A program made the translations under genes and the position numbers. A DNA stretch of 64,000 bases, from positions 24 through 64,023 of the forward strand of contig JBNPEG010000184.1 in NCBI GenBank assembly GCA_051117555.1, given 5' to 3'. Under the pieces are notes generated by a model. That model had not been told where the DNA came from, made no database searches, and saw only the letters and a list, made by a program, of their open reading frames with translations. The stretch comes from Elainellaceae cyanobacterium. Its GTDB lineage: Bacteria; Cyanobacteriota; Cyanobacteriia; CAZCXK01. Below are positions 1,851 to 59,016 of this stretch, piece by piece. Position 1 is the first letter of the stretch. Every line of letters begins with the position of its first letter.

Positions 1851-2140
1851 CCTATGGCCTAGAGACACAAAGGCTGAAATTCCCCAGCATCGTCAATGGG
1901 CATAAATCCAAACTCTAAAATCTAAAATCCAAAATCCAAAATCGATGGCAAGCAGTCTGCTCGTCTATGACTTTGTGAAAACGGCAGCCAAACATTCTCC
2001 CGGTCTTAAGAGCGTGGCTGACCAGTTGGGCGAACGGTTTAAGTCGATTAGTGGTCGTCGCCCCAAAGCAGACGTCACAACTGTTTAAGCCGTTTCGATA
2101 CGGAGTGCGATCGAGTCAGCCCTCACTCGATCACGTCCAG

Positions 2141-2402
2141 AGGCTCTTTAAAGAAGTTCTGAGAGTCTTTAAAGAGATTCAAAGACTCTCTAGACACTCT
2201 CAGAGACTCTTTAAAGAGATGCAGACACTCTCTAGACAATCCCAGAGACTCTTTAAAGAAGTTCCAAGACTCTCTAGACGATCCCAGAGACTCTTTAAAG
2301 AGGTTCCGAGACTCTCTAGACAATCCCAGAGACTCTTTAAAGAGGTTCGGAGACTCTTTAAAGAAGTTCAGAGACTCTCTAGAGAGATTCGAAGACTCTC
2401 TA
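2141..2402. repeat. Tandem array of about six 42-bp units with consensus AGACTCTCTAGACAATCCCAGAGACTCTTTAAAGAGGTTCCG. The 12-bp perfect palindrome CTCTTTAAAGAG is reiterated at least seven times.
   Basis: The repeat is directly visible. Both strands stay open across it (ORFs 2051-2422 + and 2123-2323 -) because of the palindromic periodicity. Unit variants are contiguous, with no interspersed unique spacers. Confidence 0.85.
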
Positions 2403-2419
2403 ATACCAATTCTCCTAAG

Positions 2420-2530
2420 TAAGTAGGTGAGACTAATTAAATATGAGACCTGTGTAGGTTGGGTTAGCGGTAGTGTAACCCAACAAAAATATTGCTAGCG
2501 TTGGGTTTCGCTACGCTCAACGCCAACCTA
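2420..2530 (+). promoter_or_regulatory. Structured 5'-leader element, copy L. It is a 46-bp core followed by hairpins (gttgggtta/taacccaac; tgtaggttgg/ccaacctaca). The core is near-identical to the inverted copy at 12548-12593.
   Basis: The core taagtaggtgagactaattaaatatgagacctgtgtaggttgggtt matches the reverse complement of 12548-12593 at 44 of 46 positions. The two copies also share downstream taacccaac...gggtt(t/a)cgcta segments. It lies about 60 nt upstream of the first GG-leader gene, in the same orientation. Confidence 0.6.
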
Positions 2531-2588: not shown

Positions 2589-3017
2589 ATGCAAAACAAA
2601 CAACTGTTGGTTGATCTATCACCCGAGCAGTCTGCACTTATTGAAGGAGGCTATATGCTACACCTCCATAAAATTAAGGCTGTCAAAACAGGTGCCGATT
2701 CTGATGGCGTTGATGAGGCATATTTGTCTTTCTTTCCCGCTGATAAAATTCTTCCTACTGTTATCGGTGCTGGTAAAGTCTGGGGGGAAAGTATGAAAAG
2801 GGCAGATATCGCTCGCATCAACAAACGCTTTTCCATTGCAAGTAGCGGTTCAAGCCGCCTTAAGCTTTTTGACAACGACAGTTCTTGTAACTCAAGTCGT
2901 TTTGATTTAATCGGTGCGCTATCAATCTCAGGATTGCCACGTCGCAGAGCGAAAGCACGATTGAGCGGCGGCGGATCGACTTATGTATTGACGTATAGCG
3001 TCATGGCAACTTCCTGA
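2589..3017 (+). CDS. Double-glycine-leader precursor protein A (142 aa). The leader is MQNKQLLVDLSPEQSALIEGG and the core is about 120 aa of unknown family.
   Basis: The N-terminus fits the GG-leader consensus LSxxELxxIxGG (LSPEQSALIEGG). A paralog lies immediately downstream, followed by a C39-peptidase ABC exporter and HlyD. Conserved core motifs are HLHxIKAxKxGADxDGVDEAYLxFFP and RLSGxGSTYxLTYS. Confidence 0.8.
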   Translation: MQNKQLLVDLSPEQSALIEGGYMLHLHKIKAVKTGADSDGVDEAYLSFFPADKILPTVIGAGKVWGESMKRADIARINKRFSIASSGSSRLKLFDNDSSCNSSRFDLIGALSISGLPRRRAKARLSGGGSTYVLTYSVMATS

Positions 3018-3066: not shown

Positions 3067-3477
3067 ATGCAATCTAATCCATTGTTCATTGACCTATCAC
3101 CAGAACAATCTGCACTTATTGAAGGAGGATACATTTTTCACCTTCACAGTATTAAAGCCATTAAAGCAGGAGCCGATCGAGATGGTGTTGATGAGGCATA
3201 TTTGGCTTTCTTTCCTTCTATGGGTAGAGTAAACAAGATCTGGGAACGAAGCATGAAAACTGGCGATGTCGCTCGAATCAATCAACGGGTTCCTATTTCC
3301 AGAGTGGGGCGTACATCCCTTGCCCTTTTTGATGCAGATACCTGTAGTTCAGACGATTTGATTGGAGTTGTATCGAAGCCTAGACCGGCTCCAATACCGT
3401 TGCTTTTAGGACGTGGGACGATACGTTTGAGTGGCAGTGGCTCTACGTATGATTTGACATACAGCATTACTGCGTAA
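3067..3477 (+). CDS. Double-glycine-leader precursor protein B (136 aa), paralog of A. The leader is MQSNPLFIDLSPEQSALIEGG.
   Basis: A strong Shine-Dalgarno sequence aaggagg lies 8 nt upstream. The GG leader is identical in its last 12 residues to protein A. The core shares blocks with A: YxxHLHSIKAIKAGADRDGVDEAYLAFFP, ARINQR, LFDAD, DLIG, RLSGSGSTYDLTYS. Confidence 0.8.
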   Translation: MQSNPLFIDLSPEQSALIEGGYIFHLHSIKAIKAGADRDGVDEAYLAFFPSMGRVNKIWERSMKTGDVARINQRVPISRVGRTSLALFDADTCSSDDLIGVVSKPRPAPIPLLLGRGTIRLSGSGSTYDLTYSITA

Positions 3478-3517: not shown

Positions 3518-5731
3518 ATGCGATATCAACGTGTCCTTCAACATGACGAAGAAGACTGCGGCGCAGCCTGCGTTGCCACTGTTGCCAAACACCACGGGCG
3601 CACCTTAGCAATCAGTCGAATTCGGGAAGCCGTGGGCACCGGATCACGCGGTACGTCGCTACTCGGATTGAGTCGAGGCGCTGAATCATTAGGATTCAAC
3701 ACTCGTCAGGTGAAAGCAAACCCAGACTTTCTCGATCAGCTGCATCAAGCCCCCCTTCCTGTCATCATCCACTGGAACGGCTACCACTGGGTTGTTTTAT
3801 ATGGACGGCAGGGAAAGAAGTATGTGATTGCCGATCCAGCAGTAGGCATTCGGTATTTGACTCGTCGAGAACTGATGGAAGGGTGGGGCAATGGCGTGAT
3901 GCTATTGCTAGAACCTGATGATGGTTGGTTTTATCAGCAACCTGAAGACCAGATCGGTGGATTTGGGCGCTTTCTCCAGCGGGTGTTGCCCTATCGAAGT
4001 ATCTTGATTCAGGCGATCGCCATCAATATTTTGATTGGTCTACTATCCCTCGCGTCACCGCTGATGATGCAACTGCTCACGGATGATGTGCTGGTGCGGG
4101 GGGACACCCAACTTCTGACCACCGTGGCGATCGGCGTGATTGCGATGAATCTGTTTAGTAGCGTCATTAGTTTAGTGCAGGCGCATCTGATTGGTCATTT
4201 TGGTCAACGGCTGCAACTGGGCATGATTCTCGACTATGGGCGCAAGCTGCTGCACCTGCCCTTGAGCTACTTTGAAAGCCGTCGCAGTGGGGAAGTCGTC
4301 AGCCGCATTTCTGACGTGGATGCCGTCAATAGCCTGATTTCGCAAATCGTGTTGGGATTGCCTAGTGAATTTTTTATTGCGGTAGTATCTCTTTGTTTCA
4401 TGCTGTTTTATAGCTGGCAACTGACGCTGGCATCCCTGGCGGCTTTCGTGATCGTGACGGTAGTTAATCTGCTGTTTCTACCGGCTCTACGTCACAAAAC
4501 CCGCAATATGATTGTGTTGGGCACTGAAAATCAAGGCTTTCTGGTTGAAACATTTCGCGGGATGCAAATCCTCAAAACCACGCAAGCTACACCCCAAGCA
4601 TGGCAAGAATATCAAGCAAATTTCGGTCGGTTGGCTAATCTGGGCTGGGGCATGATGAAGCTAGAGCTGCACAGCGGCACCGTGACGGGCATTCTCTCAA
4701 CCCTGACAAGTATTTCACTGCTGTGGCTGGGTAGTTATCTGGTGATTGATCAGACGCTCACCGTGGGACAACTGCTCGCGTATAACGGCATGAGCGGCAA
4801 CTTTCTCGGCTTCCTGGGATCGGTGATTGGTTTGGTGGATGAATTTATCATGGCGCAGGTGGTGCTCCAGCGCTTAGCTGAAGTCATTGACGCGACGCCA
4901 GAAGATCAGCATGATAGCCAAAAGCCCTGGACAGAGATTCCAGCCGATGCGGATATCATATGTGCCGATCTCACCTTTCATCATGCGGGTCGGGTCGATT
5001 TGCTGCAAGATGTTTCCTTGTCCATTCCAGGCGGAGAGGTCGTGGCGCTGATTGGCAAGTCAGGCTGTGGCAAAAGCACCTTCGCTAAGCTGCTGGCTGG
5101 GTCGTATTTTCCCCAATCGGGCAACATTCGCTATGGGCTTTACAACCAGCGCGATTTGTCACTGGATTGCTTGCGGCAGCAGGTGATGTTAGTACCTCAA
5201 GAGCCCCACTTCTGGAGCCGTTCTATCATTGACAACTTCCGCTTTAGCTATCCCCACGCCACCTTTGAAAGTATCGTTCAAGCCTGTCAGATTGCGGGTG
5301 CGGATGAGTTCATTAGCAATCTACCTGACAAATACCAAACGGTGTTGGGTGAATTTGGTGCCAATCTGTCAGGCGGACAGCGGCAACGGCTGGCGATCGC
5401 CCGTGCCATTATCACTGATCCACCTGTCTTAATTCTGGATGAGTCAACAGGTGCTCTTGATCCGGTCAGTGAAGCCCAGATCCTTCAGCGGCTGTTTAAT
5501 AGTCGTCCAGGGAAAACTACGATTGTCATTAGCCATCGTCCCAGTGTTGTGCAACATGCCGACTGGCTGATCATGCTGGATCAGGGAAAGGTAGTCATTC
5601 AAGGTACGCCAGAAGATTTGCGACACCGACCCGGTGATCACCTCGATTTTCTGGGCGATGTGCCTTCATCCAATGGTTGGAATAGAAATGCAATTACGTG
5701 TACGGGCGAACGGACGTTCGCCCCTGCCTAA
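3518..5731 (+). CDS. Peptidase-C39-domain ABC transporter (PCAT; bacteriocin/GG-leader peptide processing exporter).
   Basis: The N-terminal C39 domain has the catalytic Cys in EEDCGAACVATV and His in YHWVVLYG. Six predicted TM helices are present. NBD motifs are Walker A GKSGCGKST, ABC signature LSGGQRQRLAIARA and Walker B LILDEST. Confidence 0.9.
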   Translation: MRYQRVLQHDEEDCGAACVATVAKHHGRTLAISRIREAVGTGSRGTSLLGLSRGAESLGFNTRQVKANPDFLDQLHQAPLPVIIHWNGYHWVVLYGRQGKKYVIADPAVGIRYLTRRELMEGWGNGVMLLLEPDDGWFYQQPEDQIGGFGRFLQRVLPYRSILIQAIAINILIGLLSLASPLMMQLLTDDVLVRGDTQLLTTVAIGVIAMNLFSSVISLVQAHLIGHFGQRLQLGMILDYGRKLLHLPLSYFESRRSGEVVSRISDVDAVNSLISQIVLGLPSEFFIAVVSLCFMLFYSWQLTLASLAAFVIVTVVNLLFLPALRHKTRNMIVLGTENQGFLVETFRGMQILKTTQATPQAWQEYQANFGRLANLGWGMMKLELHSGTVTGILSTLTSISLLWLGSYLVIDQTLTVGQLLAYNGMSGNFLGFLGSVIGLVDEFIMAQVVLQRLAEVIDATPEDQHDSQKPWTEIPADADIICADLTFHHAGRVDLLQDVSLSIPGGEVVALIGKSGCGKSTFAKLLAGSYFPQSGNIRYGLYNQRDLSLDCLRQQVMLVPQEPHFWSRSIIDNFRFSYPHATFESIVQACQIAGADEFISNLPDKYQTVLGEFGANLSGGQRQRLAIARAIITDPPVLILDESTGALDPVSEAQILQRLFNSRPGKTTIVISHRPSVVQHADWLIMLDQGKVVIQGTPEDLRHRPGDHLDFLGDVPSSNGWNRNAITCTGERTFAPA

Positions 5732-5910: not shown

Positions 5911-7305
5911 TTGAATTTGGATATAATCATGGCCTTAACCCATTCCTCGGATTCAACCAACCTGCCTCCCGTTTCTGCTAATGATTTTCTGCCACCCATT
6001 AGCCGCTGGACTACTACAGGAGGATTGGTGCTCATCGGCATCATGGGCATTGCGCTGGCGATCGCCTCGGTTGCCAAATACAAGGTCACAGTGAAAGCTC
6101 CGGCCAGCATTCGTCCGGCAGGAGAATTGCGAATTGTGCAAGCAGCAACAACGGGTGCTGTGACCCATATTTTGGTGAAAGAGAATCAAGCTATTCAAAG
6201 CGGAGACATGATTGCGTTGATTGATGATTCGCAACTACAAACTAAAAAGAGCCAACTGCAAAGCGCCACCCAACAGGCTCGACTTCAAATTGCCCAGATT
6301 AATGCTCAAATTCAAGCACTCGGCGATCAAATAGTAGCTGAAGAAGACCGTATGAATCGGGCGATCGCCGCTTCTGAGGCAGAACTTAGCCAACAACATC
6401 GAGATTATCAGAACCAGCAAATTAGTACTGTAATGGAAGTCGAGGAAGCAGAAGCAGAAGTCCGATCGGCAGTGGCTAGTCTGGGTGCGGCTGAATCTCG
6501 GTATCACCGCTACCAGCCCGTTGCTCAAGCGGGTGCCCTTTCCCAAGATCAACTTGAAGAGGCACACCTGGCAGTTCAGCAACAAGAACAAGCCGTCGAA
6601 GCCGCTCAAGCACGACTGCATAGACTCCAGGCAAGGTTAAATCCCAGTTCAGCCAACGTGGCGATCGCCACTGAACGCATTGCCCAAGAACAGGCAACAG
6701 GTGCTGCTACCCTTGCCGCATTGAATAAAGAGCGGGAGGCACTGATTCAACAACGGGTAGAGATGCAAAAGCAACTAGAGCAAGACACCCGCGAACTTCA
6801 GCAAGTCGAAACTGATTTGCATCAGACGGCGATCGTCGCTACGTCTGATGGCATACTTTCAACCTTGAATCTACGAAATCCAGGACAAACTGTTAGTGCA
6901 GGAGAAACCATTGCTCAGATTGTTCCAGATGACACCCCGCTGCAAATCAAAACATTTGTGCCCCCTGAACATAGAAGCAAGCTGAATGAAGGGCAATCAG
7001 CGCTGATGCGAGTGTCTGCATGTCCCTATCCCGACTATGGCACGCTCAACGGCACGGTCAGTCAAATCTCTGAAGATACGATTAAGCCCCAAACTAGCGA
7101 TACTTTGGCAGGAAGTGTTACTACTTCTGAAAATGCACCACCCACTTACGAAGTTACTATCGAGCCAAATAACTTTGTTTTGACTAGGGGCGCAGCGGAA
7201 TGTCCTATTGAGCTGGGAATGGAAGGAACCGTTGACATTATTTCGAGAGAAGAAACGGTTCTACAGTTTTTCCTGAGAAAAGCTCGGTTGATTGCAGATA
7301 ATTGA
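5911..7305 (+). CDS. HlyD-family periplasmic adaptor (membrane fusion protein) of a type I / PCAT secretion system.
   Basis: It has an N-terminal TM segment LVLIGIMGIALAIASVA followed by a long Q/A/E-rich coiled-coil region. The C-terminal beta-rich domain ends in the conserved FFLRKARL-like motif typical of HlyD/CvaA adaptors. Its position immediately after the PCAT fits this role. Confidence 0.8.
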   Translation: MNLDIIMALTHSSDSTNLPPVSANDFLPPISRWTTTGGLVLIGIMGIALAIASVAKYKVTVKAPASIRPAGELRIVQAATTGAVTHILVKENQAIQSGDMIALIDDSQLQTKKSQLQSATQQARLQIAQINAQIQALGDQIVAEEDRMNRAIAASEAELSQQHRDYQNQQISTVMEVEEAEAEVRSAVASLGAAESRYHRYQPVAQAGALSQDQLEEAHLAVQQQEQAVEAAQARLHRLQARLNPSSANVAIATERIAQEQATGAATLAALNKEREALIQQRVEMQKQLEQDTRELQQVETDLHQTAIVATSDGILSTLNLRNPGQTVSAGETIAQIVPDDTPLQIKTFVPPEHRSKLNEGQSALMRVSACPYPDYGTLNGTVSQISEDTIKPQTSDTLAGSVTTSENAPPTYEVTIEPNNFVLTRGAAECPIELGMEGTVDIISREETVLQFFLRKARLIADN

Positions 7306-9871: not shown

Positions 9872-12145
9872 TTAAGCAAGGGGTAAAAACTCGGCTTCGA
9901 CCTCACTCCGAACGCTCTCATTGGCGGCAAAGACTAGCAATCGAACCGGCATATCATTGTCGAGTTCAATGTCATCAACTTGGATGCCTTGAGAAGAAAG
10001 ATTAAATTCAATCGGGGAGATGCCATCGGGCTGTACTTCAAACGCATCCGCTACGGTAAAATCGAGCGGCAGATCGATTTCGACATCGGGGCTAGATTCA
10101 TCAAATATCCAGTGGGGAACACTGCCTTCAGAATTCACCAGCAGACATTCTAAGTCACTCGGTTCACTCTCGGTATCGAGGCTAATGATGGGGACAATCA
10201 ACGCATCACGCGCTTGAATCACTTCAACAAGTGTTTCATCGTCTGATGATGCAGCTCCTGTTACGTCACCTTCCCGGAGCCACGGTCGGACGGCTCGAAC
10301 CATTGCATTCATATCGGCGATCGCTTGCCACCGTTCAGGTGCTTCTTCGGCTTCATCCTGGTTGACCTGAAACCACAACAGTCCTTTTGCTCCTGCGGCA
10401 ACTGCCATCATTCCTTGAGCCAAAATTTCTTGCGGGTCAGGCTGCACGCTAAATTCATCTCCTCCCAAAAGTGGGCTGCGATTCCAAGCCGGAGACAGCC
10501 CCTGAGTATACATCCACGTCGTGAGAGGCATATGGTTGTTGCGGGTGTTACGAAGATAGTCGAACGTAGCTCGCAGAGGAGGATGTTCACCGAATGATGT
10601 CACATGGGGCGCACAGGCGGCGGTGTAAAAGTCCATCCCTTGGATATCGGTCATGCCTGCAAATGAACCGATATGTTTATTCGTTTTGCCCCCATTAAAC
10701 GTCGGAAGTTCGGGATATCGCTGCCACGATCGCCACGAGTCTCGTGCTTTCAGGGCAGGAATTGGAATGCCCGTATCATCGTCATAGATGGTATCGTCTG
10801 ATTCATCGCCTGTGACAACGGCAGCAATACCAGAGGTGTTTGTAAAGTCTGGAAAGTTTCGACCGGGGTTGATATAGGGGTTGTAGTTGACAAAGGCGCT
10901 AAAGCCTTCCAAGCTCCCTAACTCATCGTTGATTACTGTATAAGGATCACACACTCCATCGTCACAGGTCGTCCCGTTCACAAAAATCGTATCAATCCCG
11001 GCCTCACGGATATTTTGATAGTTTTCGACGTTTCCCGATGGAAATGGGCGTTCTGATGTATTATTCCACGCCATTACCGGGAAAAACTCAGGAATAACGC
11101 GCCCCGTTCCCACCGCCGCCGCCGCATTTGCGTATTCCACCACCACAGTCCAAGCATCACCCGGAGCAGTAGGCTCTGCTAAAGGAACTGTCCATAGATC
11201 GTGGGACTCTGCGGCAATCGTTCGATCAGAAATTGCGGCAGGATTAGATTGCAAGATATCGACCCCATTCACCCAAACCCGCTCAACCTGATGAGCGATT
11301 TCATCGGTATTTTGTACATGAATGATAAAACTAGAGTAGTTGTCAGCAGTCGTGACATAGGTAAGCGGCGCTGGCGTTTGCGCGACAGAGAAGCGCCCGT
11401 CGACTACGATACCCTGATTCGTTTCGACTCGAATCGAGCCGCTATCGACAGCATCCCATTTGGCATCACGAGAATGAAAGTTAACCCAGATAGGCTCTCC
11501 CGCTTCAGCGCGTCGAGGCCACACATGCACCCATTCAAATGGGGGAGTTTCGCTAGGATTGCGTTCATAGATGACTTGCCGTTCGATGCCATCAATAGAA
11601 ACGTGAGTGACTCGTCCAGACGATTGAGCCGTCGTCGCAATTTGGATTCGCCCGCCCGTTAGAGGTTCAGGTGTGTCTTCATCGTAGACATCGTTCGGGA
11701 AAAAAAAGTCTTTGCGATAGGTTGCAAAGATGGACGGAGCTGTTGAAATATCGGTTGATGGCGTTGCAGGGGAAGAAAGGGATTTGGATTCGCGGATCAG
11801 GCTGTCATCAATTTGAGAGCCTGATGACGTGGGTGCAACGAGCGCATCGTTGGCTCTCCCGCCGATGAGCGATCGCCCCCTCGAACCCTCAGATTGATTT
11901 GAAGTATCACGCGTAGTCCGCCGGAACCGTTGATCAAGGAGGGATTCAGAGTCAGGCAATAAGGAGCTATCAGGTCTAGTTTCGACCAATTCAGCAGCGG
12001 CAACATCAGGGGCAGCAAGTATCTGTCGCGTCGTCTGTTGAGATATGAGGGTTGGACGTGAAAAAAGGGGATCTTCAGATTGGGAACGAATCAGGTTGGT
12101 AGTTAGCGACCCTTCATCAGACAGTAGAGTGTTGATTAGCTCCAT
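9872..12145 (-). CDS. Hypothetical 757-aa protein. It has a Ser/Thr/Pro-rich, probably disordered N-terminal region of about 150 aa and then a large domain of unrecognised family.
   Basis: It is a long uninterrupted ORF with coding-like composition. No Walker, catalytic or repeat motifs were recognised. It is convergent with the ATPase gene. Confidence 0.6.
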   Translation of the reverse strand: MELINTLLSDEGSLTTNLIRSQSEDPLFSRPTLISQQTTRQILAAPDVAAAELVETRPDSSLLPDSESLLDQRFRRTTRDTSNQSEGSRGRSLIGGRANDALVAPTSSGSQIDDSLIRESKSLSSPATPSTDISTAPSIFATYRKDFFFPNDVYDEDTPEPLTGGRIQIATTAQSSGRVTHVSIDGIERQVIYERNPSETPPFEWVHVWPRRAEAGEPIWVNFHSRDAKWDAVDSGSIRVETNQGIVVDGRFSVAQTPAPLTYVTTADNYSSFIIHVQNTDEIAHQVERVWVNGVDILQSNPAAISDRTIAAESHDLWTVPLAEPTAPGDAWTVVVEYANAAAAVGTGRVIPEFFPVMAWNNTSERPFPSGNVENYQNIREAGIDTIFVNGTTCDDGVCDPYTVINDELGSLEGFSAFVNYNPYINPGRNFPDFTNTSGIAAVVTGDESDDTIYDDDTGIPIPALKARDSWRSWQRYPELPTFNGGKTNKHIGSFAGMTDIQGMDFYTAACAPHVTSFGEHPPLRATFDYLRNTRNNHMPLTTWMYTQGLSPAWNRSPLLGGDEFSVQPDPQEILAQGMMAVAAGAKGLLWFQVNQDEAEEAPERWQAIADMNAMVRAVRPWLREGDVTGAASSDDETLVEVIQARDALIVPIISLDTESEPSDLECLLVNSEGSVPHWIFDESSPDVEIDLPLDFTVADAFEVQPDGISPIEFNLSSQGIQVDDIELDNDMPVRLLVFAANESVRSEVEAEFLPLA

Positions 12146-23422: not shown

Positions 23423-23495
23423 CCAGGGTTGGCCGAGCGGTTGAGGCAGCGAACTCATAATTCGCGCTAGGCAGGTTCGACTCCTGCACCCTGGA
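23423..23495 (+). tRNA. tRNA with anticodon CAU. It is an elongator tRNA-Met or a lysidine-type tRNA-Ile2, and it is not initiator-like.
   Basis: A manual cloverleaf gives acceptor ccagggt/accctgg, U8, a D-loop with GG, anticodon stem gcgaa/ttcgc with loop ctCATaa, and T-arm gcagg-ttcgact-cctgc. No CCA is encoded. The anticodon stem lacks the three G-C pairs of initiator tRNAs. Confidence 0.8.
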
Positions 23496-39699: not shown

Positions 39700-39773
<74 letters not shown>

Positions 39774-46588: not shown

Positions 46589-46834
46589 CTATGACTTGTC
46601 AGAGGATGATTCGCTGTCGTCTTGCTCATTTACCTTTGGAACAATATCAGGGCGTTCAGCACCTTCCCAACCAGGCGGGCGCTTGGAGTTATACCAAGCA
46701 ATTGACCCAATCACGACCGCTGCGATAAAGCCCACGACGTAAACTAGCGTAAATGCTGCCGGAAGCCCTGAAGACGCCCCTGACGCAACATCCATCATAA
46801 TAAAATTCATATTTAGCAACTCCCTTGAGTCCAA
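46589..46834 (-). CDS. Small single-pass membrane protein (about 70-80 aa).
   Basis: One TM helix (FTLVYVVGFIAAVVIGSIAWY) is followed by an acidic tail. The start is ambiguous (MNFIMMDVAS). Confidence 0.4.
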   Translation of the reverse strand: MDSRELLNMNFIMMDVASGASSGLPAAFTLVYVVGFIAAVVIGSIAWYNSKRPPGWEGAERPDIVPKVNEQDDSESSSDKS

Positions 46835-47105: not shown

Positions 47106-47870
47106 ATGGCTCCTACACCGTTTCTGACAATTGACGACCAATCCGTTTCACTGGCTCAGGCTGTTCGTTATTTGCAAACTGCGCGGAAATTTGATGCGTT
47201 TATTGGAGAGATCCTTCGTCAGTTCGTCGTCGAACAAGAGTTGCGGACTCGAGATGACCTTCATGTGAGTTCGCCCGTCATTGAGCAGGCAATTATTGAT
47301 TTTCGTCTCCAGCGGCAACTGACTGACCCCAAGCAGTTTCAGGAATGGTTGGCTGCAAACGGTACTACCTACGACACGTTTCATAATCAGATTGCGACAG
47401 GATTTAAGCTCAAGAAACTCAAGGATGCGATCGCCCAATCCAAGCTTCAAGAATATTTCATTGAACGCAAAATTTATCTCGATCGGGTCGTCATTTCTCG
47501 TATCATCGTCGCGGATAAAGAGCTTGCCGACGAGTTGAAAAGTCAAATTGAAGAAGGGAGCAGCAGCTTCGAGCAGCTCGCGCGCGACTATTCGTTAACG
47601 GATGACCGGATTGTAAACGGCATGGTGGGGCCCGTAAGTCGGGGATCGATGCCTGATTTACTGAGAGTTGCAATCGATGAGGCACAACCGGGGGAAATTG
47701 TCGGCCCCATTGGGATGGAAGAACGGTGGGGCTTATTTCGAATTGAAGAGATGCTACCCGCATCGCTAGATAACCCTCAACTAAGACAGTCGCTCCAAGA
47801 CGAGTTGTTTGAGCAATGGCTAGCTGAGAAAATGCAGAATTTACCCATCAAGCTGCAGGTGGGTGAATGA
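47106..47870 (+). CDS. Parvulin-type (PpiC/PrsA-like) peptidyl-prolyl isomerase domain protein.
   Basis: The C-terminal region ISRIIVADKELADELKSQIEEGSSSFEQLARDYS...GMVGPVSRGSMPDLLRVAIDEAQPGEIVGPIGMEERWGLFRIEEM resembles PpiC rotamase domains. Its stop overlaps the start of the downstream ABC gene (ATGA). Confidence 0.55.
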   Translation: MAPTPFLTIDDQSVSLAQAVRYLQTARKFDAFIGEILRQFVVEQELRTRDDLHVSSPVIEQAIIDFRLQRQLTDPKQFQEWLAANGTTYDTFHNQIATGFKLKKLKDAIAQSKLQEYFIERKIYLDRVVISRIIVADKELADELKSQIEEGSSSFEQLARDYSLTDDRIVNGMVGPVSRGSMPDLLRVAIDEAQPGEIVGPIGMEERWGLFRIEEMLPASLDNPQLRQSLQDELFEQWLAEKMQNLPIKLQVGE

Positions 47871-50422
47871 CATTACAAAACCAACTCGCTAGCTTAGATT
47901 GGAATCATGCACCCCTCAGCTGGTTGGACTCAAAGCAGCAGGAAACGATTCAGGCAAATGCCCAAGAATGCGTCTATCGGTTAGGGGAAGTCATTGGGTC
48001 GACTGAATCACCTGGCTACCAATACTGCATCATTTCGGGAAAAGTTCGGCTGATCCCGAATGAGGAGAAGCCAGTTTTGCTCACGGCAGGCGACTGGTTT
48101 GGTGATTTGCCTGAGCTTTCCGGAGAATGGAAAGCGAGAGCTGCTAGTAAAGATGTGGTGATTCTGAGATGGGAATCATCAGTATGGTTTGATATGCTGA
48201 CGGGCGATCGCAACGGTTCGGCAGAGGCATCTCAAGCCCTCCGCCAGTTTTGGGCGGGACTGCGATCGCGCTATCAACCTGATGTTTCTGACACCCCTCA
48301 GCCCGTGGCAGGATACCCTTTTGTGACGGGTCTCAACACGGCTGCGGCATGCCTAACCATGGCGAGCCAGTATTTTGATGCGCCTGTCCAGTTTGACTGG
48401 ATGAAGCGACAGCTTCGAGGACAAACTCCAAAACATGTCGTTGATGGAGCGGAGAAGGCGGGACTGCATCTGCGGCGGCTGCTAATTGGCACATGGGCAG
48501 ATTTACGACAGATCAATCTACCGGCATTACTTCGCTGGCAAGATGAGCGATGGGTCGCCCTTTACGATATCCGGGGCGATCGCCTCGTGATTGGCGACCC
48601 CATGAATCCGGCTCAGACGTGTGAGAGTATTCCTCGGCGCATGGCTGAGGAGCGATGGGATGGTGAACTGTGGCAAGTTGAGCCGATTCAAAAGCAGGAA
48701 ACATTTAACTTGAGCTGGTTTCTGCCTGCGGTTTGGCGCTACAAACGCTTGCTCGGCGAAGTTCTATTAGCATCGTTTACGCTTCAGCTTTTAGGATTGG
48801 CAACGCCCATCATTACTCAGGTGATCATTGACAAGGTGATGGTGCAGGGTAGTATTCCTACCCTCGACGTGATGGCGATCGCCCTACTGAGCGTTGCTGT
48901 CTTTGAGGGGTTATTGGGCACGCTGCGGATGTTTATTTTCACCCACACAACCAATCGCCTCGACCTGAGTTTGTCTGCTCAACTGTTTCGTCATCTGCTG
49001 CGCTTGCCCCTGTCTTATTTTGAATCGCGGCGGGTCGGTGATACAGTCGCCCGTGTGCAAGAGCTAGAAGAAATTCGTCAGTTTCTGACCAGCACGGCGC
49101 TCACCGTCATTTTAGACAGCATTTTTGCAGTGATTTATCTGCTGGTGATGTTTTATTACAGCGTTAAGCTTACAGGCGTTGCGTTGGCAGTCTTACCTCT
49201 GTTTGCGGTGCTAACGTTGACGGCAACGCCCGTTTTGCGCGTGTGGCTCAACGAAACCTTTAATCGAAGCGCAGATAGTCAATCGTATTTAGTTGAGACC
49301 GTTACAGGCATTCATACAGTCAAAGCGCATGCTGCCGAAAAAGCGGCGCGCGATCGCTGGGAAGGGCTGTATGCGAGATTTGTTCGTACGGGCTTTCGAG
49401 CCAATACAACAGCAAATATCAGCAACCATATCGGAGATTTTTTAACCAGCTTTTCGAGCCTATTGTTGCTCTGGATCGGCGCTAGATTGGTGATTAATCA
49501 AGACTTTACGATTGGTCAGCTGATTGCCTTTCAAATGCTCTCAGCACGGGTTACTGGGCCTCTTCTCCGTTTGGTACAGCTTTGGCAAAATCTGCAAGAG
49601 GTGTTATTAGCTGTCGATCGCATTGGTGACATTCTCAATGTCCCTCCTGAAGCTGAACCGGGCACTGGGTTAGTGTTACCCCCTCTCCAAGGGAAGGTTG
49701 CTTTTGACAAAATCTTTTTCCGCTACCAAAGCGAACAAGAGCCCATTCTCAAAGGGGTGTCGTTTACCGTAGAACCCGGCATGTTTGTGGGCATCGTTGG
49801 TCGGAGCGGATCGGGTAAGAGCACTCTCTCTAAGCTCATTCAGCGGCTCTACCCGGCTGAAGCAGGTCGCATCACTATTGATGGATTTGATATCAAAAGC
49901 GCCGATTTAGCCTCTCTGCGTCCTCAAATTGCGGTTGTCCTACAAGACGACTTCTTATTTAACGGAACGATTTTAGAGAATATCACGTTAGGTAATCCAG
50001 ATGTTTCTGCTGAAGATGTGGTTGAAGCAGCCCGATTAGCAGTCGCTCACGATTTTATTTCTGACTTACCCCACGGCTATGAAACCAACGTGGGAGAAAG
50101 GGGGGTAGCGCTTTCAGGCGGGCAGCGGCAGCGCATTACGCTAGCACGACTATTTCTCTCGCAAGCGCCCATTATGATCTTAGACGAAGCAACCAGCAAT
50201 CTAGATGCAGAAACTGAACAGCAAGTCTTAGAGAATCTCCGCAACGTGTCTCACAATCGAACGGTGTTTCTCATCGCCCATCGCTTCGCACCTTTAAAAA
50301 CCGCAGACTTAATTTTGGCAATGGACAAGGGGATCGTTGTGGAGCGAGGCACCCATCAATCGCTGTTGAATGATAAAGGACTATATTATTCCCTTTATCA
50401 ACGCCAGCAATCTTCAGTGTAA
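47867..50422 (+). CDS. HlyB-like type I secretion ABC transporter. It has an N-terminal cyclic-nucleotide-binding-like domain and a degenerate C39-like domain (CLD).
   Basis: The cNMP-like region is GEVIGSTESPGYQYCIISGKVRLI. Compared with the intact C39 at 3518, the domain NTAAACL...RWVALYD has Cys to Thr and His to Arg at the catalytic positions. Six TM helices are predicted. NBD motifs are Walker A GRSGSGKST, signature LSGGQRQRITLAR and Walker B IMILDEA. Confidence 0.85.
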   Translation: MTLQNQLASLDWNHAPLSWLDSKQQETIQANAQECVYRLGEVIGSTESPGYQYCIISGKVRLIPNEEKPVLLTAGDWFGDLPELSGEWKARAASKDVVILRWESSVWFDMLTGDRNGSAEASQALRQFWAGLRSRYQPDVSDTPQPVAGYPFVTGLNTAAACLTMASQYFDAPVQFDWMKRQLRGQTPKHVVDGAEKAGLHLRRLLIGTWADLRQINLPALLRWQDERWVALYDIRGDRLVIGDPMNPAQTCESIPRRMAEERWDGELWQVEPIQKQETFNLSWFLPAVWRYKRLLGEVLLASFTLQLLGLATPIITQVIIDKVMVQGSIPTLDVMAIALLSVAVFEGLLGTLRMFIFTHTTNRLDLSLSAQLFRHLLRLPLSYFESRRVGDTVARVQELEEIRQFLTSTALTVILDSIFAVIYLLVMFYYSVKLTGVALAVLPLFAVLTLTATPVLRVWLNETFNRSADSQSYLVETVTGIHTVKAHAAEKAARDRWEGLYARFVRTGFRANTTANISNHIGDFLTSFSSLLLLWIGARLVINQDFTIGQLIAFQMLSARVTGPLLRLVQLWQNLQEVLLAVDRIGDILNVPPEAEPGTGLVLPPLQGKVAFDKIFFRYQSEQEPILKGVSFTVEPGMFVGIVGRSGSGKSTLSKLIQRLYPAEAGRITIDGFDIKSADLASLRPQIAVVLQDDFLFNGTILENITLGNPDVSAEDVVEAARLAVAHDFISDLPHGYETNVGERGVALSGGQRQRITLARLFLSQAPIMILDEATSNLDAETEQQVLENLRNVSHNRTVFLIAHRFAPLKTADLILAMDKGIVVERGTHQSLLNDKGLYYSLYQRQQSSV

Positions 50423-58574: not shown

Positions 58575-58958
58575 GGGGCTGTAACGGTTTCGACGTTTTG
58601 GCGAAAGCTACCTTATGACGCAGGTCGAGAGTGAGTCTACTCTCGTAAATCAAGACTCAAACAAAAAGTAAGTGCGAATAACATCGTTCCTTTTGCTCGC
58701 AAAGCGGCTCCTGTTGCTGCTTAATTAAAACTCTTCGCGAGCGCTCATAGCTTGACTCCGTTAAGGGCTATGGGCACAACCCCAACGGATGCTCTAGTCG
58801 TTTGTCTCTGGTCAACGGCTAGCTAAGACTTCACCAGAGAATCCCTATCGTTCGGGATAATGAACGATTCCCGCCTTGAGGACAAGATAGGCTAAACCTG
58901 TGAATGAATGAGGTATTAATACCCAGAGCGGACACGGGTTCGACTCCCGTCAGCTCCA
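58575..58958 (+). ncRNA. ssrA: tmRNA (SsrA), standard one-piece form. The tag reading frame encodes ANNIVPFARKAAPVAA.
   Basis: The 5' end is GGGGCTGTAACGGTTTCGACG and the 3' tRNA-like end is GGACACGGGTTCGACTCCCGTCAGCTCCA. The internal ORF gcgaataacatcgttccttttgctcgcaaagcggctcctgttgctgcttaa gives a cyanobacterial-type tag. Confidence 0.95.
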
Positions 58959-59016
58959 TTATTGGTTAGGTCTTGGCAGTTAGCTCTGCATCATCAAAGT
59001 TAGTGTTATCGAGTAG

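Follow-up and report, generated by a model that had tools for sequence, protein, structure and literature searches.

Why would a cyanobacterium couple a gene for a SurA/PrsA-like protein to a gene for an ATP-binding cassette (ABC) exporter, and what might the two products do together? The question is raised by a two-gene locus in a 64,000-nucleotide stretch of DNA from an Elainellaceae cyanobacterium (assembly GCA_051117555.1, contig JBNPEG010000184.1). We call this whole stretch the window; it is cyanobacterial, and both proteins show 98-100% identity to proteins of Elainellaceae metagenome-assembled genomes (MAGs). We hold, with moderate confidence, that the pair forms the inner-membrane part of a type I secretion system (T1SS) for large non-Sec proteins together with a dedicated cytoplasmic chaperone or adaptor. 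A first-pass annotation of this DNA had proposed two open reading frames (ORFs) here joined by an ATGA overlap; both are present, and the overlap can be read in the sequence, where the junction is GGTGAATGACA and TGA and ATG share four bases. The upstream product is referred to below as the partner and the downstream one as the exporter.

47106 to 47870, plus strand: partner gene, encoding 254 aa; SurA/PrsA-like, parvulin domain degenerate (ORF, Pfam, AlphaFold, Foldseek)
47867 to 50422, plus strand: exporter gene, for an 851-aa HlyB-type ABC protein with, in order, a cyclic-nucleotide-binding (CNB) homology domain, a C39-like domain (CLD), a transmembrane domain (TMD) and a nucleotide-binding domain (NBD) (TIGR01846; match to HlyB 7SGR)
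47867 to 47870, plus strand: ATGA overlap of the partner stop codon TGA with the exporter start codon ATG (read directly)

What kind of pump does the second gene encode? The exporter scored 774.4 bits against the NCBIfam model TIGR01846, type_I_sec_HlyB, above its cut-off of 725.55 (residues 161-848 on model positions 3-693), and 578.8 bits against E. coli HlyB (7SGR) over residues 275-847, with PCAT1 far lower at 335 bits. Orthologs of 841-890 aa are common across cyanobacteria. The domains of the window protein are as follows.

47867 to 48286, plus strand: CNB-homology domain, residues 1-140 (profile matches, AlphaFold, Foldseek)
48098 to 48148, plus strand: non-canonical phosphate-binding cassette, residues 78-94, FGDLPELSGEWKARAAS (alignments)
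48314 to 48691, plus strand: CLD, residues ~150-275 (Pfam Peptidase_C39; alignment to an active paralog)
48734 to 49576, plus strand: TMD (Pfam ABC_membrane, E=6.2e-55, residues 299-566; hydrophobic windows)
49694 to 50419, plus strand: NBD with intact ATPase motifs (Pfam ABC_tran, E=9.3e-32)

The motifs of the NBD comprise Walker A (GRSGSGKS at 645), LSGGQ at 749, Walker B with its glutamate (IMILDE at 769) and the H-loop (IAHR at 803). The CLD, by comparison, has lost its catalytic residues, as the first-pass annotation had proposed. Residues 141-290 scanned alone match Peptidase_C39 (E=9e-7, 29.2 bits, cut-off 22), and in a BLASTP alignment to the active paralog encoded at 3518 in the window NTAAAC aligns with DCGAAC and ERWVALY with YHWVVLY. 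The position of the catalytic Cys is thus T158 (48338-48340), which in 121 orthologs is T (92), S (22), A (6) or P (1) and never Cys, and that of the catalytic His is R228 (48548-48550), occupied in the same orthologs by H (67), R (40) or E (10). Family-wide loss of the nucleophile, together with a His site that is free to vary, is what marks a C39-like domain as HlyB-like and non-catalytic.

These substitutions bear directly on whether the exporter could instead be a bacteriocin or peptide exporter of the peptidase-containing ABC transporter (PCAT) kind, which processes double-glycine (GG) leader peptides. Some orthologs are indeed named 'peptidase domain-containing ABC transporter' in databases, the exporter gives sizeable sub-threshold scores to NHLM and bacteriocin ABC models, and an active PCAT cassette with GG-leader genes lies elsewhere in the window. 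All PCAT and bacteriocin models nevertheless stayed under their own cut-offs (TIGR01193, 396.8 against 523.85; TIGR03796, 448.2 against 853.3) where the HlyB model was exceeded, and no GG-leader ORF adjoins the pair. With the catalytic Cys absent from every ortholog we rejected this reading, to which we assign next to no probability. The TIGR01846 score, the similarity to HlyB, the Cys-less CLD and the intact ATPase motifs identify the exporter, on sequence grounds, as a HlyB-type T1SS ABC transporter.

A second CNB-domain ABC exporter was seen in one Nostocaceae genome, a few kb from the pair (L057:15501-20194, minus strand; 997 aa, with a degenerate C39 site and an adjoining HlyD gene), so that two or more families of CNB-domain HlyB-like exporters exist in cyanobacteria.

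Is the pump gated by a cyclic nucleotide, as was proposed at first pass? The fold on which that proposal drew is borne out. AlphaFold models the N-terminal domain with a pLDDT (predicted local distance difference test) score of 88.6 as eight strands followed by helices, and among the top 50 Foldseek matches listed almost all are solved CNB or CNB-homology domains (E ~1e-7, probability 1.00, template-modelling score 0.5-0.7), the highest including those of PKG, HCN, MloK1 and PKA. Similarly, a profile of 26 orthologs matches CNB domains of PKG, PKA regulatory subunits and MloK1 in the Protein Data Bank (PDB; single-domain PKA-R, E=2e-7). Residues 1-152 scanned alone reach 19.6 bits with Pfam cNMP_binding (PF00027), under the cut-off of 27.5, and many orthologs carry a precomputed match to this family. 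When only the N-terminal 152 aa served as query, a homolog search returned a single protein, the word index of the search missing so divergent a domain.

The phosphate-binding cassette is not canonical. Where a canonical cassette reads G-E ... R-[ST]-A, that of the exporter reads F78-G79-D80 ... W88-K89-A90-R91-A92-A93; it is nearly invariant, with G79, K89 and R91 invariant or nearly so in the 121 orthologs. Lys-Ala (K89-A90) occupies the place of the phosphate-binding Arg-Ser/Thr in three independent alignments, and D80 aligns with Glu72 of CRP, placing Asp for the ribose-binding Glu. The hhalign alignment of the ortholog profile to E. coli CRP is short and of low probability, and is usable only for this G-D/G-E position. 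A true cAMP or cGMP sensor gating secretion would be in keeping with the CNB fold, whose closest solved matches are cGMP- and cAMP-binding domains, with the near-invariance of a cassette region that keeps the Gly, an acidic residue and two basic residues, and with the PF00027 matches of the orthologs. The two substitutions point the other way, as do the sub-threshold Pfam score of the window protein and the fourth rank, by fold, of EAG1 (4f8a), a CNB-homology domain of the non-binding kind. A precedent for regulation by something other than a cyclic nucleotide comes from HetC of Nostoc, the only characterised cyanobacterial exporter with this order of domains, whose essential CNB-type domain bound ppGpp and GTP and did not respond to cAMP (PMC10986499). 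A cAMP or cGMP sensor is thus quite unlikely, and gating of the exporter by either nucleotide is doubtful. Because Asp and Lys-Ala replace Glu and Arg-Ser/Thr, we take the N-terminal domain for a CNB-homology regulatory domain whose input is more likely another small ligand or a protein contact than cAMP or cGMP.

Two further features of this region can be recorded. Residue 44 (47996-47998), within a strand of the CNB-homology domain, is Gly where 119 of the 121 orthologs have Trp, and an identical MAG protein (P0121) also has Gly. Residues 12-17 (47900-47917), before the CNB domain, carry a W-x-x-P-P-L-x-W-L motif that is nearly invariant in the 121 orthologs; the W-x-x-P-P-L part suggests one possible docking site for the partner.

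What, then, is the partner? The first-pass annotation described a parvulin-type, foldase-like protein. The match to Pfam Rotamase (PF00639; E=7.6e-10, 40.1 bits, cut-off 21.7) and an architecture like that of PrsA and SurA agree with this description; an active periplasmic foldase does not follow, with no signal peptide in evidence and both signature histidines replaced. The protein divides as follows.

47106 to 47480, plus strand: N-terminal segment of the chaperone (NC) module, spanning residues 1-125 with two short strands and five helices (AlphaFold model)
47481 to 47756, plus strand: parvulin-fold domain, residues ~126-217 (alignment to B. subtilis PrsA; Foldseek)
47757 to 47867, plus strand: C-terminal helix closing the chaperone module, and a conserved low-confidence tail, LPIKLQV (model; ortholog alignment)

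SurA_N and SurA_N_3 match weakly at residues 39-105, and alignments to SurA N-domains in the PDB were also obtained. In the AlphaFold model (pLDDT 86.3) the full-length partner matches PrsA (4wo7, 6vj6, 5htf) and SurA (2pv3, 1m5y) by Foldseek at probability 1.00, and its parvulin domain superposes on PpiC/Pin1 domains with a root-mean-square deviation of 1.5-2.0 A. The closing helix spans residues 224-244; confidence drops, with mean pLDDT at 73 for residues 241-250 and values under 50 from 252 onwards, in a tail whose P247 and I248 are invariant, and L250 and Q251 nearly so, in 21 orthologs. At the two parvulin signature histidines the partner has R132 (codon 47499-47501) and G209 (codon 47730-47732), both invariant in the same 21 orthologs: in the alignment to B. 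subtilis PrsA, ASHILV faces ISRIIV of the partner and YGYHII faces ERWGLF. Across the wider family the first site holds R, C, Q, H, E or W and the second G, F, C, L, Y, Q or H. The partner is thus a SurA/PrsA-like pseudo-parvulin, which probably lacks isomerase activity and would act non-enzymatically. Its N-terminus, MAPTPFLTIDDQSVS, has no hydrophobic stretch (maximum hydropathy 0.83 over residues 1-50) and is polar in the 21 aligned orthologs, which points to a cytoplasmic location.

The best NCBIfam match of the partner was TIGR04500 (E=3.6e-23), and membership was rejected: the score of 82.4 bits is far under the cut-off of 180, and only model positions 90-331 are covered, so that the N-domain is missing. 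The context of that family, a graspetide synthetase with a precursor peptide, is not present beside the pair, where no short precursor-like ORF was evident. The flanking genes are of the housekeeping kind: rsmB precedes the pair, and on the opposite strand it is followed by an operon for an ABC importer (two permeases, two binding proteins, one ATPase).

Is the pairing of these two genes more than an accident of one genome? The arrangement had been thought uncommon, and this was contradicted by a pattern scan that found 312 species-level relatives of the partner, counting one genome per species. Locus counts use the best 80 of these 312, and the neighbourhood conservation that had been put forward as a check was confirmed there: the exporter lies directly downstream on the same strand in 77 of the 80. 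At the three exceptional loci an ORF of ~500 aa comes next, a sodium:solute symporter in two and a protein without a Pfam match in the third. Seen from the exporter, the partner is upstream in 29 of 40 informative metagenome loci, including every exporter of at least 63% identity. The start of the exporter could be assigned in 72 loci, with Nostocales start codons set heuristically, and the two genes were joined by the ATGA overlap in 31, by a 1-nt overlap in one, and separated by 5-38 nt in 32 and by 72-257 nt in eight. Such spacing fits a single operon, and we infer co-transcription from it; promoter and terminator scans of the window were uninformative on this point, giving no more sites than shuffled sequence, and an Rfam scan returned no RNA element close to the pair. 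Flanking genes are otherwise not conserved across loci. The pair is, in short, a standard two-gene module of filamentous cyanobacteria; Chlorogloeopsis fritschii PCC 6912 and Leptolyngbya sp. O-77 are among its carriers.

Which other components might belong to the module is suggested by its orthologs in other genomes. A HlyD-family gene directly follows the exporter in three loci (L103, L122, L123) and lies within 5 kb in L109, L112, L115 and L117. In nine species loci a protein of 416-457 aa is encoded 446-817 nt downstream of the exporter on the same strand, and a tenth locus has two copies further downstream; these proteins combine a lectin-like domain, RTX repeats (PF00353, above threshold) and a bluetail C-terminal domain (NF041519, 73-83 bits, cut-off 21). 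S8 subtilases stand between the exporter and HlyD in L109, L112, L115 and L117, the last with a lysozyme/CHAP protein in addition. The sole HlyD-like gene of the window, at 5911, belongs to the active PCAT cassette at 3518 and is only 22% identical to the HlyD ortholog group of these relatives; the cognate adaptor of the exporter is therefore presumably encoded elsewhere in the genome.

In a sister clade of the exporter, cargo-like genes were found downstream of the CLD-type ABC gene at the following places.

L117, 12639 to 19145: cargo-like region, before HlyD
L115, 7026 to 11822: cargo-like region, before HlyD
L112, 3501 to 8210: cargo-like region, before HlyD
L109, 4425 to 9208: cargo-like region, before HlyD
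L127, 4262 to 8643: cargo-like region; HlyD not seen downstream of the ABC gene in this truncated locus

Their products are of S8 subtilase, lysozyme/CHAP/LysM and PG_binding/lipase types, have no Sec signal, and share a Q/S-rich N-terminus with an 'SFQP' motif. They resemble secreted effectors that degrade cell walls and bear a shared N-terminal tag. A further subtilase of ~700 aa, with PPC and S8 domains and no obvious signal peptide, precedes the pair by 1.4-2 kb in the majority of 18 Nostocales loci (for example L046:5677-7893 and L049:6566-8650, both minus strand). It is encoded on the strand opposite to the pair, from which a DUF92 membrane-protein gene separates it.

How far does the association reach? 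An exhaustive search of 1.84 billion representative proteins returned 83 representatives of the partner family at E<=1e-30 and 920 at E<=1e-10, mostly of ~250 aa. Seven distant relatives were sampled for gene context, listed here with their identity and the genes in order.

P0334 (28% identity), L126: HlyD, cNMP-C39-ABC, partner
P0379 (27% identity), L129: cNMP-C39-ABC, partner
P0364 (29% identity), L131: partner, cNMP-C39 ABC (partial)
P0298 (33% identity), L127: partner, CLD-ABC, S8/lipase, lysozyme
P0250 (42% identity), L130: partner, giant RTX protein of >4054 aa
P0277 (35% identity), L124/L125: giant S8/PPC protein, partner
P0389 (26% identity), L132: beside cytochrome c genes, with no exporter or cargo context

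An exporter or a giant RTX or S8 protein is thus found beside six of the seven sampled relatives (27-42% identity). The DCGAAC and YH motifs of an active C39 domain are intact in the exporters of L126 and L129, and two CNB domains are resolved in those of L126, L129 and L131, the last with a canonical G-E…R-S-A cassette. These three contigs (GC 59-64%; L126 has 59% GC and a GyrA 40% identical to that of the window) are probably not cyanobacterial. Fusion proteins among the distant relatives were limited to duplicated parvulin domains and were not informative. The partner family thus keeps company with C39 or CLD exporters, and with giant non-Sec cargo, even where gene order, exporter subtype and probably phylum differ, and no other evidence speaks as strongly for a functional link.

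The same data allow one to judge whether the pair might be an operon of convenience, with the partner serving the cytoplasm at large as a prolyl isomerase or chaperone that has no specific tie to the exporter. The pairing is missing in three of 80 partner-centred and 11 of 40 exporter-centred loci, one genome has the two genes on different contigs, and the distant relative P0389 sits beside cytochrome c genes, all of which would suit such an operon. That the pairing persists though every flanking gene changes, that the ATGA overlap is conserved, and that the association recurs with reversed order and with active-C39 exporters in distant, probably non-cyanobacterial relatives speak for a specific tie; besides, the partner is without the catalytic histidines of a working parvulin. 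An operon of convenience is therefore very unlikely in our estimation.

How might a type I pump and a dedicated chaperone or adaptor work together? The partner, its synthesis presumably matched to that of the pump, would serve as a cytoplasmic chaperone or adaptor that holds cargo, either keeping large non-Sec cargo secretion-competent or passing it to the CLD. The CLD, facing the cytoplasm, would bind the cargo as in HlyB and, because its catalytic Cys is lost, would do so without cutting. ATP hydrolysis by the NBD would then drive the unfolded cargo through the TMD, and the CNB-homology domain would supply a regulatory input. A membrane-fusion protein (MFP), a TolC-like channel and the cargo itself would be encoded elsewhere in the genome.

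A competing possibility is that the partner is itself the cargo of the adjacent ABC protein, exported perhaps only to the periplasm, no MFP being linked to the pair, and acting there as a foldase of the SurA/PrsA type on envelope or secreted proteins. Its solved structural relatives, PrsA, SurA, PEB4, Cj1289 and CBF2, are all extracytoplasmic chaperones; it is acidic (isoelectric point 4.8), free of cysteine and signal-less, which are typical traits of T1SS cargo; its gene stands immediately upstream of the exporter, a frequent position for cargo genes; and its C-terminal tail is conserved and poorly ordered. Export to the periplasm has moreover been proposed for HetC, since no MFP gene lies nearby (PMC10986499). 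Yet the partner has neither RTX repeats nor a bluetail-like C-terminal domain, and RTX proteins are the characteristic cargo of CLD-type exporters. It is also predicted to adopt a compact, confident fold, and fast-folding proteins, as is established for HlyA secretion, make poor T1SS cargo. The four-nucleotide start/stop overlap suggests production in matched rather than excess amounts, some relatives adjoin giant RTX or S8 proteins with no ABC gene within 6-7 kb, and related cassettes hold HlyD and separate cargo-like genes. Finally, MirC, of the nearest family, works in the cytoplasm (PMC13097080). We regard the partner as cargo as unlikely, while granting it a real share of the probability.

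Several observations weigh against the proposal of an inner-membrane secretion module with a cytoplasmic helper, and they temper the confidence that we place in it. As the first-pass annotation had stated, neither an adaptor nor a substrate adjoins the pair: outside the PCAT cassette no HlyD, TolC-like, RTX or cargo gene was found in the 64-kb window, and a tblastn search of the window with the RTX-bluetail and S8 cargo candidates of the relatives, together with a scan for RTX motifs, gave no match. Secretion across two membranes is therefore read only from the relatives. All structurally characterised SurA/PrsA-like proteins are extracytoplasmic, so that a cytoplasmic role departs from precedent, MirC being the sole precedent that we found; no signal peptide or lipobox was detected on the partner by hydropathy and alignment, rather than by a dedicated predictor. 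Loss of the histidine pair is no proof that isomerase activity is lost, because histidine mutants of Pin1 keep some function. The linkage is likewise not obligatory, since in one of the exceptional genomes the exporter lies on another contig without a partner, and a sister clade of the exporter (~58% identity) mostly has no adjacent partner. The pair counts are not counts of independent events, as some metagenome loci duplicate species loci and related genera share ancestry.

How does the pair compare with systems already known? The exporter resembles E. coli HlyB in its TMD and NBD and in a cytoplasmic N-terminal C39-like domain that lacks the Cys, and its relatives are linked, like HlyB, to HlyD-family genes and RTX-repeat proteins. 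It differs from HlyB in its extra CNB-homology domain, in the replacement of the His as well, and in having no adjacent hlyD or cargo gene; moreover, the hly operon has no counterpart of the SurA/PrsA-like gene to which the exporter gene is coupled. PrsA of Bacillus and SurA of E. coli share with the partner a chaperone module with an inserted parvulin domain, but both are exported (as a lipoprotein or by a Sec signal) and retain the histidine pair in one or more of their parvulin domains, neither of which holds for the partner. In its manner of working the proposed helper would be closest to SecB, the cytoplasmic anti-folding chaperone on which secretion of HasA by the Serratia T1SS depends and, to our knowledge, the only textbook case of such a chaperone being needed for a type I substrate. 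SecB, however, is a general chaperone of unrelated fold, and its gene lies apart from that of the transporter.

HetC of Nostoc sp. PCC 7120 is also cyanobacterial, has the same cNMP, C39 and ABC domain order, and lacks an MFP gene nearby; by its description it is set apart from the window exporter (851 aa, CLD-type, one CNB domain) by a length of ~1044 aa and by an active Cys/His peptidase that is needed for function (PMC10986499). No parvulin-like partner is described for HetC, whereas the window exporter has one. MirC, a cytoplasmic SurA-like protein without isomerase function, is a partner that a graspetide synthetase needs for peptide maturation, and its gene cluster also holds a PCAT (PMC13097080). 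MirC and the TIGR04500 family, 'PpiC-related peptide maturation system protein', thus share with our partner a SurA-like chaperone module and a cluster with a C39-type ABC exporter. They differ in that MirC partners an ATP-grasp enzyme rather than a transporter, and in that the window partner has no RRE-like N-domain and is accompanied by neither a graspetide synthetase nor a precursor.

Seen across these systems, the partner might found a wider class, a possibility that we put forward tentatively and with less confidence than the role proposed for the pair itself. Its members would be dedicated cytoplasmic accessory proteins of T1SS and PCAT machines, SurA-like 'pseudo-parvulins' that chaperone giant cargo of the non-Sec kind (RTX-bluetail proteins, S8 proteases, cell-wall hydrolases) or bring it to ligand-dependent CNB exporters and, beyond cyanobacteria, also to active-C39 exporters.

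What is new here is the pairing more than the pump. Type I secretion is taught as an ABC protein, an adaptor and an outer-membrane channel, with no dedicated chaperone. CLDs of the HlyB type are textbook knowledge, and the architecture of the exporter is already known, experimentally from HetC and otherwise through database entries named, for instance, 'cyclic nucleotide-regulated ABC bacteriocin/lantibiotic exporter' (PMC8707875). A search of the open-access literature brought up no parvulin-like or SurA-like protein described as a partner of type I secretion or of PCAT exporters; nor did it yield anything relevant on the NCBI 'bluetail' domain or on this gene pair in cyanobacteria, or helpful information on sll1180. 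The pairing may therefore point to a type I secretion helper that has gone unrecognised. No other group encodes as many RTX proteins as the cyanobacteria (PMC3034196), the routes by which these are secreted are barely mapped, and at issue are both how giant cargo stays unfolded and how secretion is switched on. A linked SurA-like partner and a sensor-like domain on the pump provide two testable handles, on cargo handling and on regulation, respectively. Potential uses include the assignment of cargo to transporters in cyanobacterial genomes and the engineering of protein secretion in production strains.

Other features of the window were also recorded. The gap separating rsmB from the pair holds an ORF of 81 aa (46589-46834, minus strand); it encodes a single hydrophobic segment, shows 91% conservation in the sister genome L001 and matches no Pfam family. 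Directly upstream of the active C39 PCAT are two paralogous ORFs of ~140 aa with a double-glycine leader, …DLSPEQSALIEGG|Y…, which with the PCAT and the HlyD-like gene make up a complete export cassette for GG-leader proteins, with unusually large cargo. These and the remaining features are as follows.

2051 to 2422, plus strand: ORF almost wholly of RLFKEV/RLSRxSQ repeats, between a TPR gene and the GG-leader genes; probably a tandem DNA repeat
2589 to 3017, plus strand: first GG-leader ORF
3067 to 3477, plus strand: second GG-leader ORF
3518 to 5731: active C39 PCAT
5911 to 7305: HlyD-like gene
9872 to 12145, minus strand: 757-aa ORF, with no Pfam family at E<=0.01

One tmRNA and two tRNA genes account for three further positions, at 58575-58961 (plus strand), 39700-39773 (minus strand) and 23423-23495 (plus strand).

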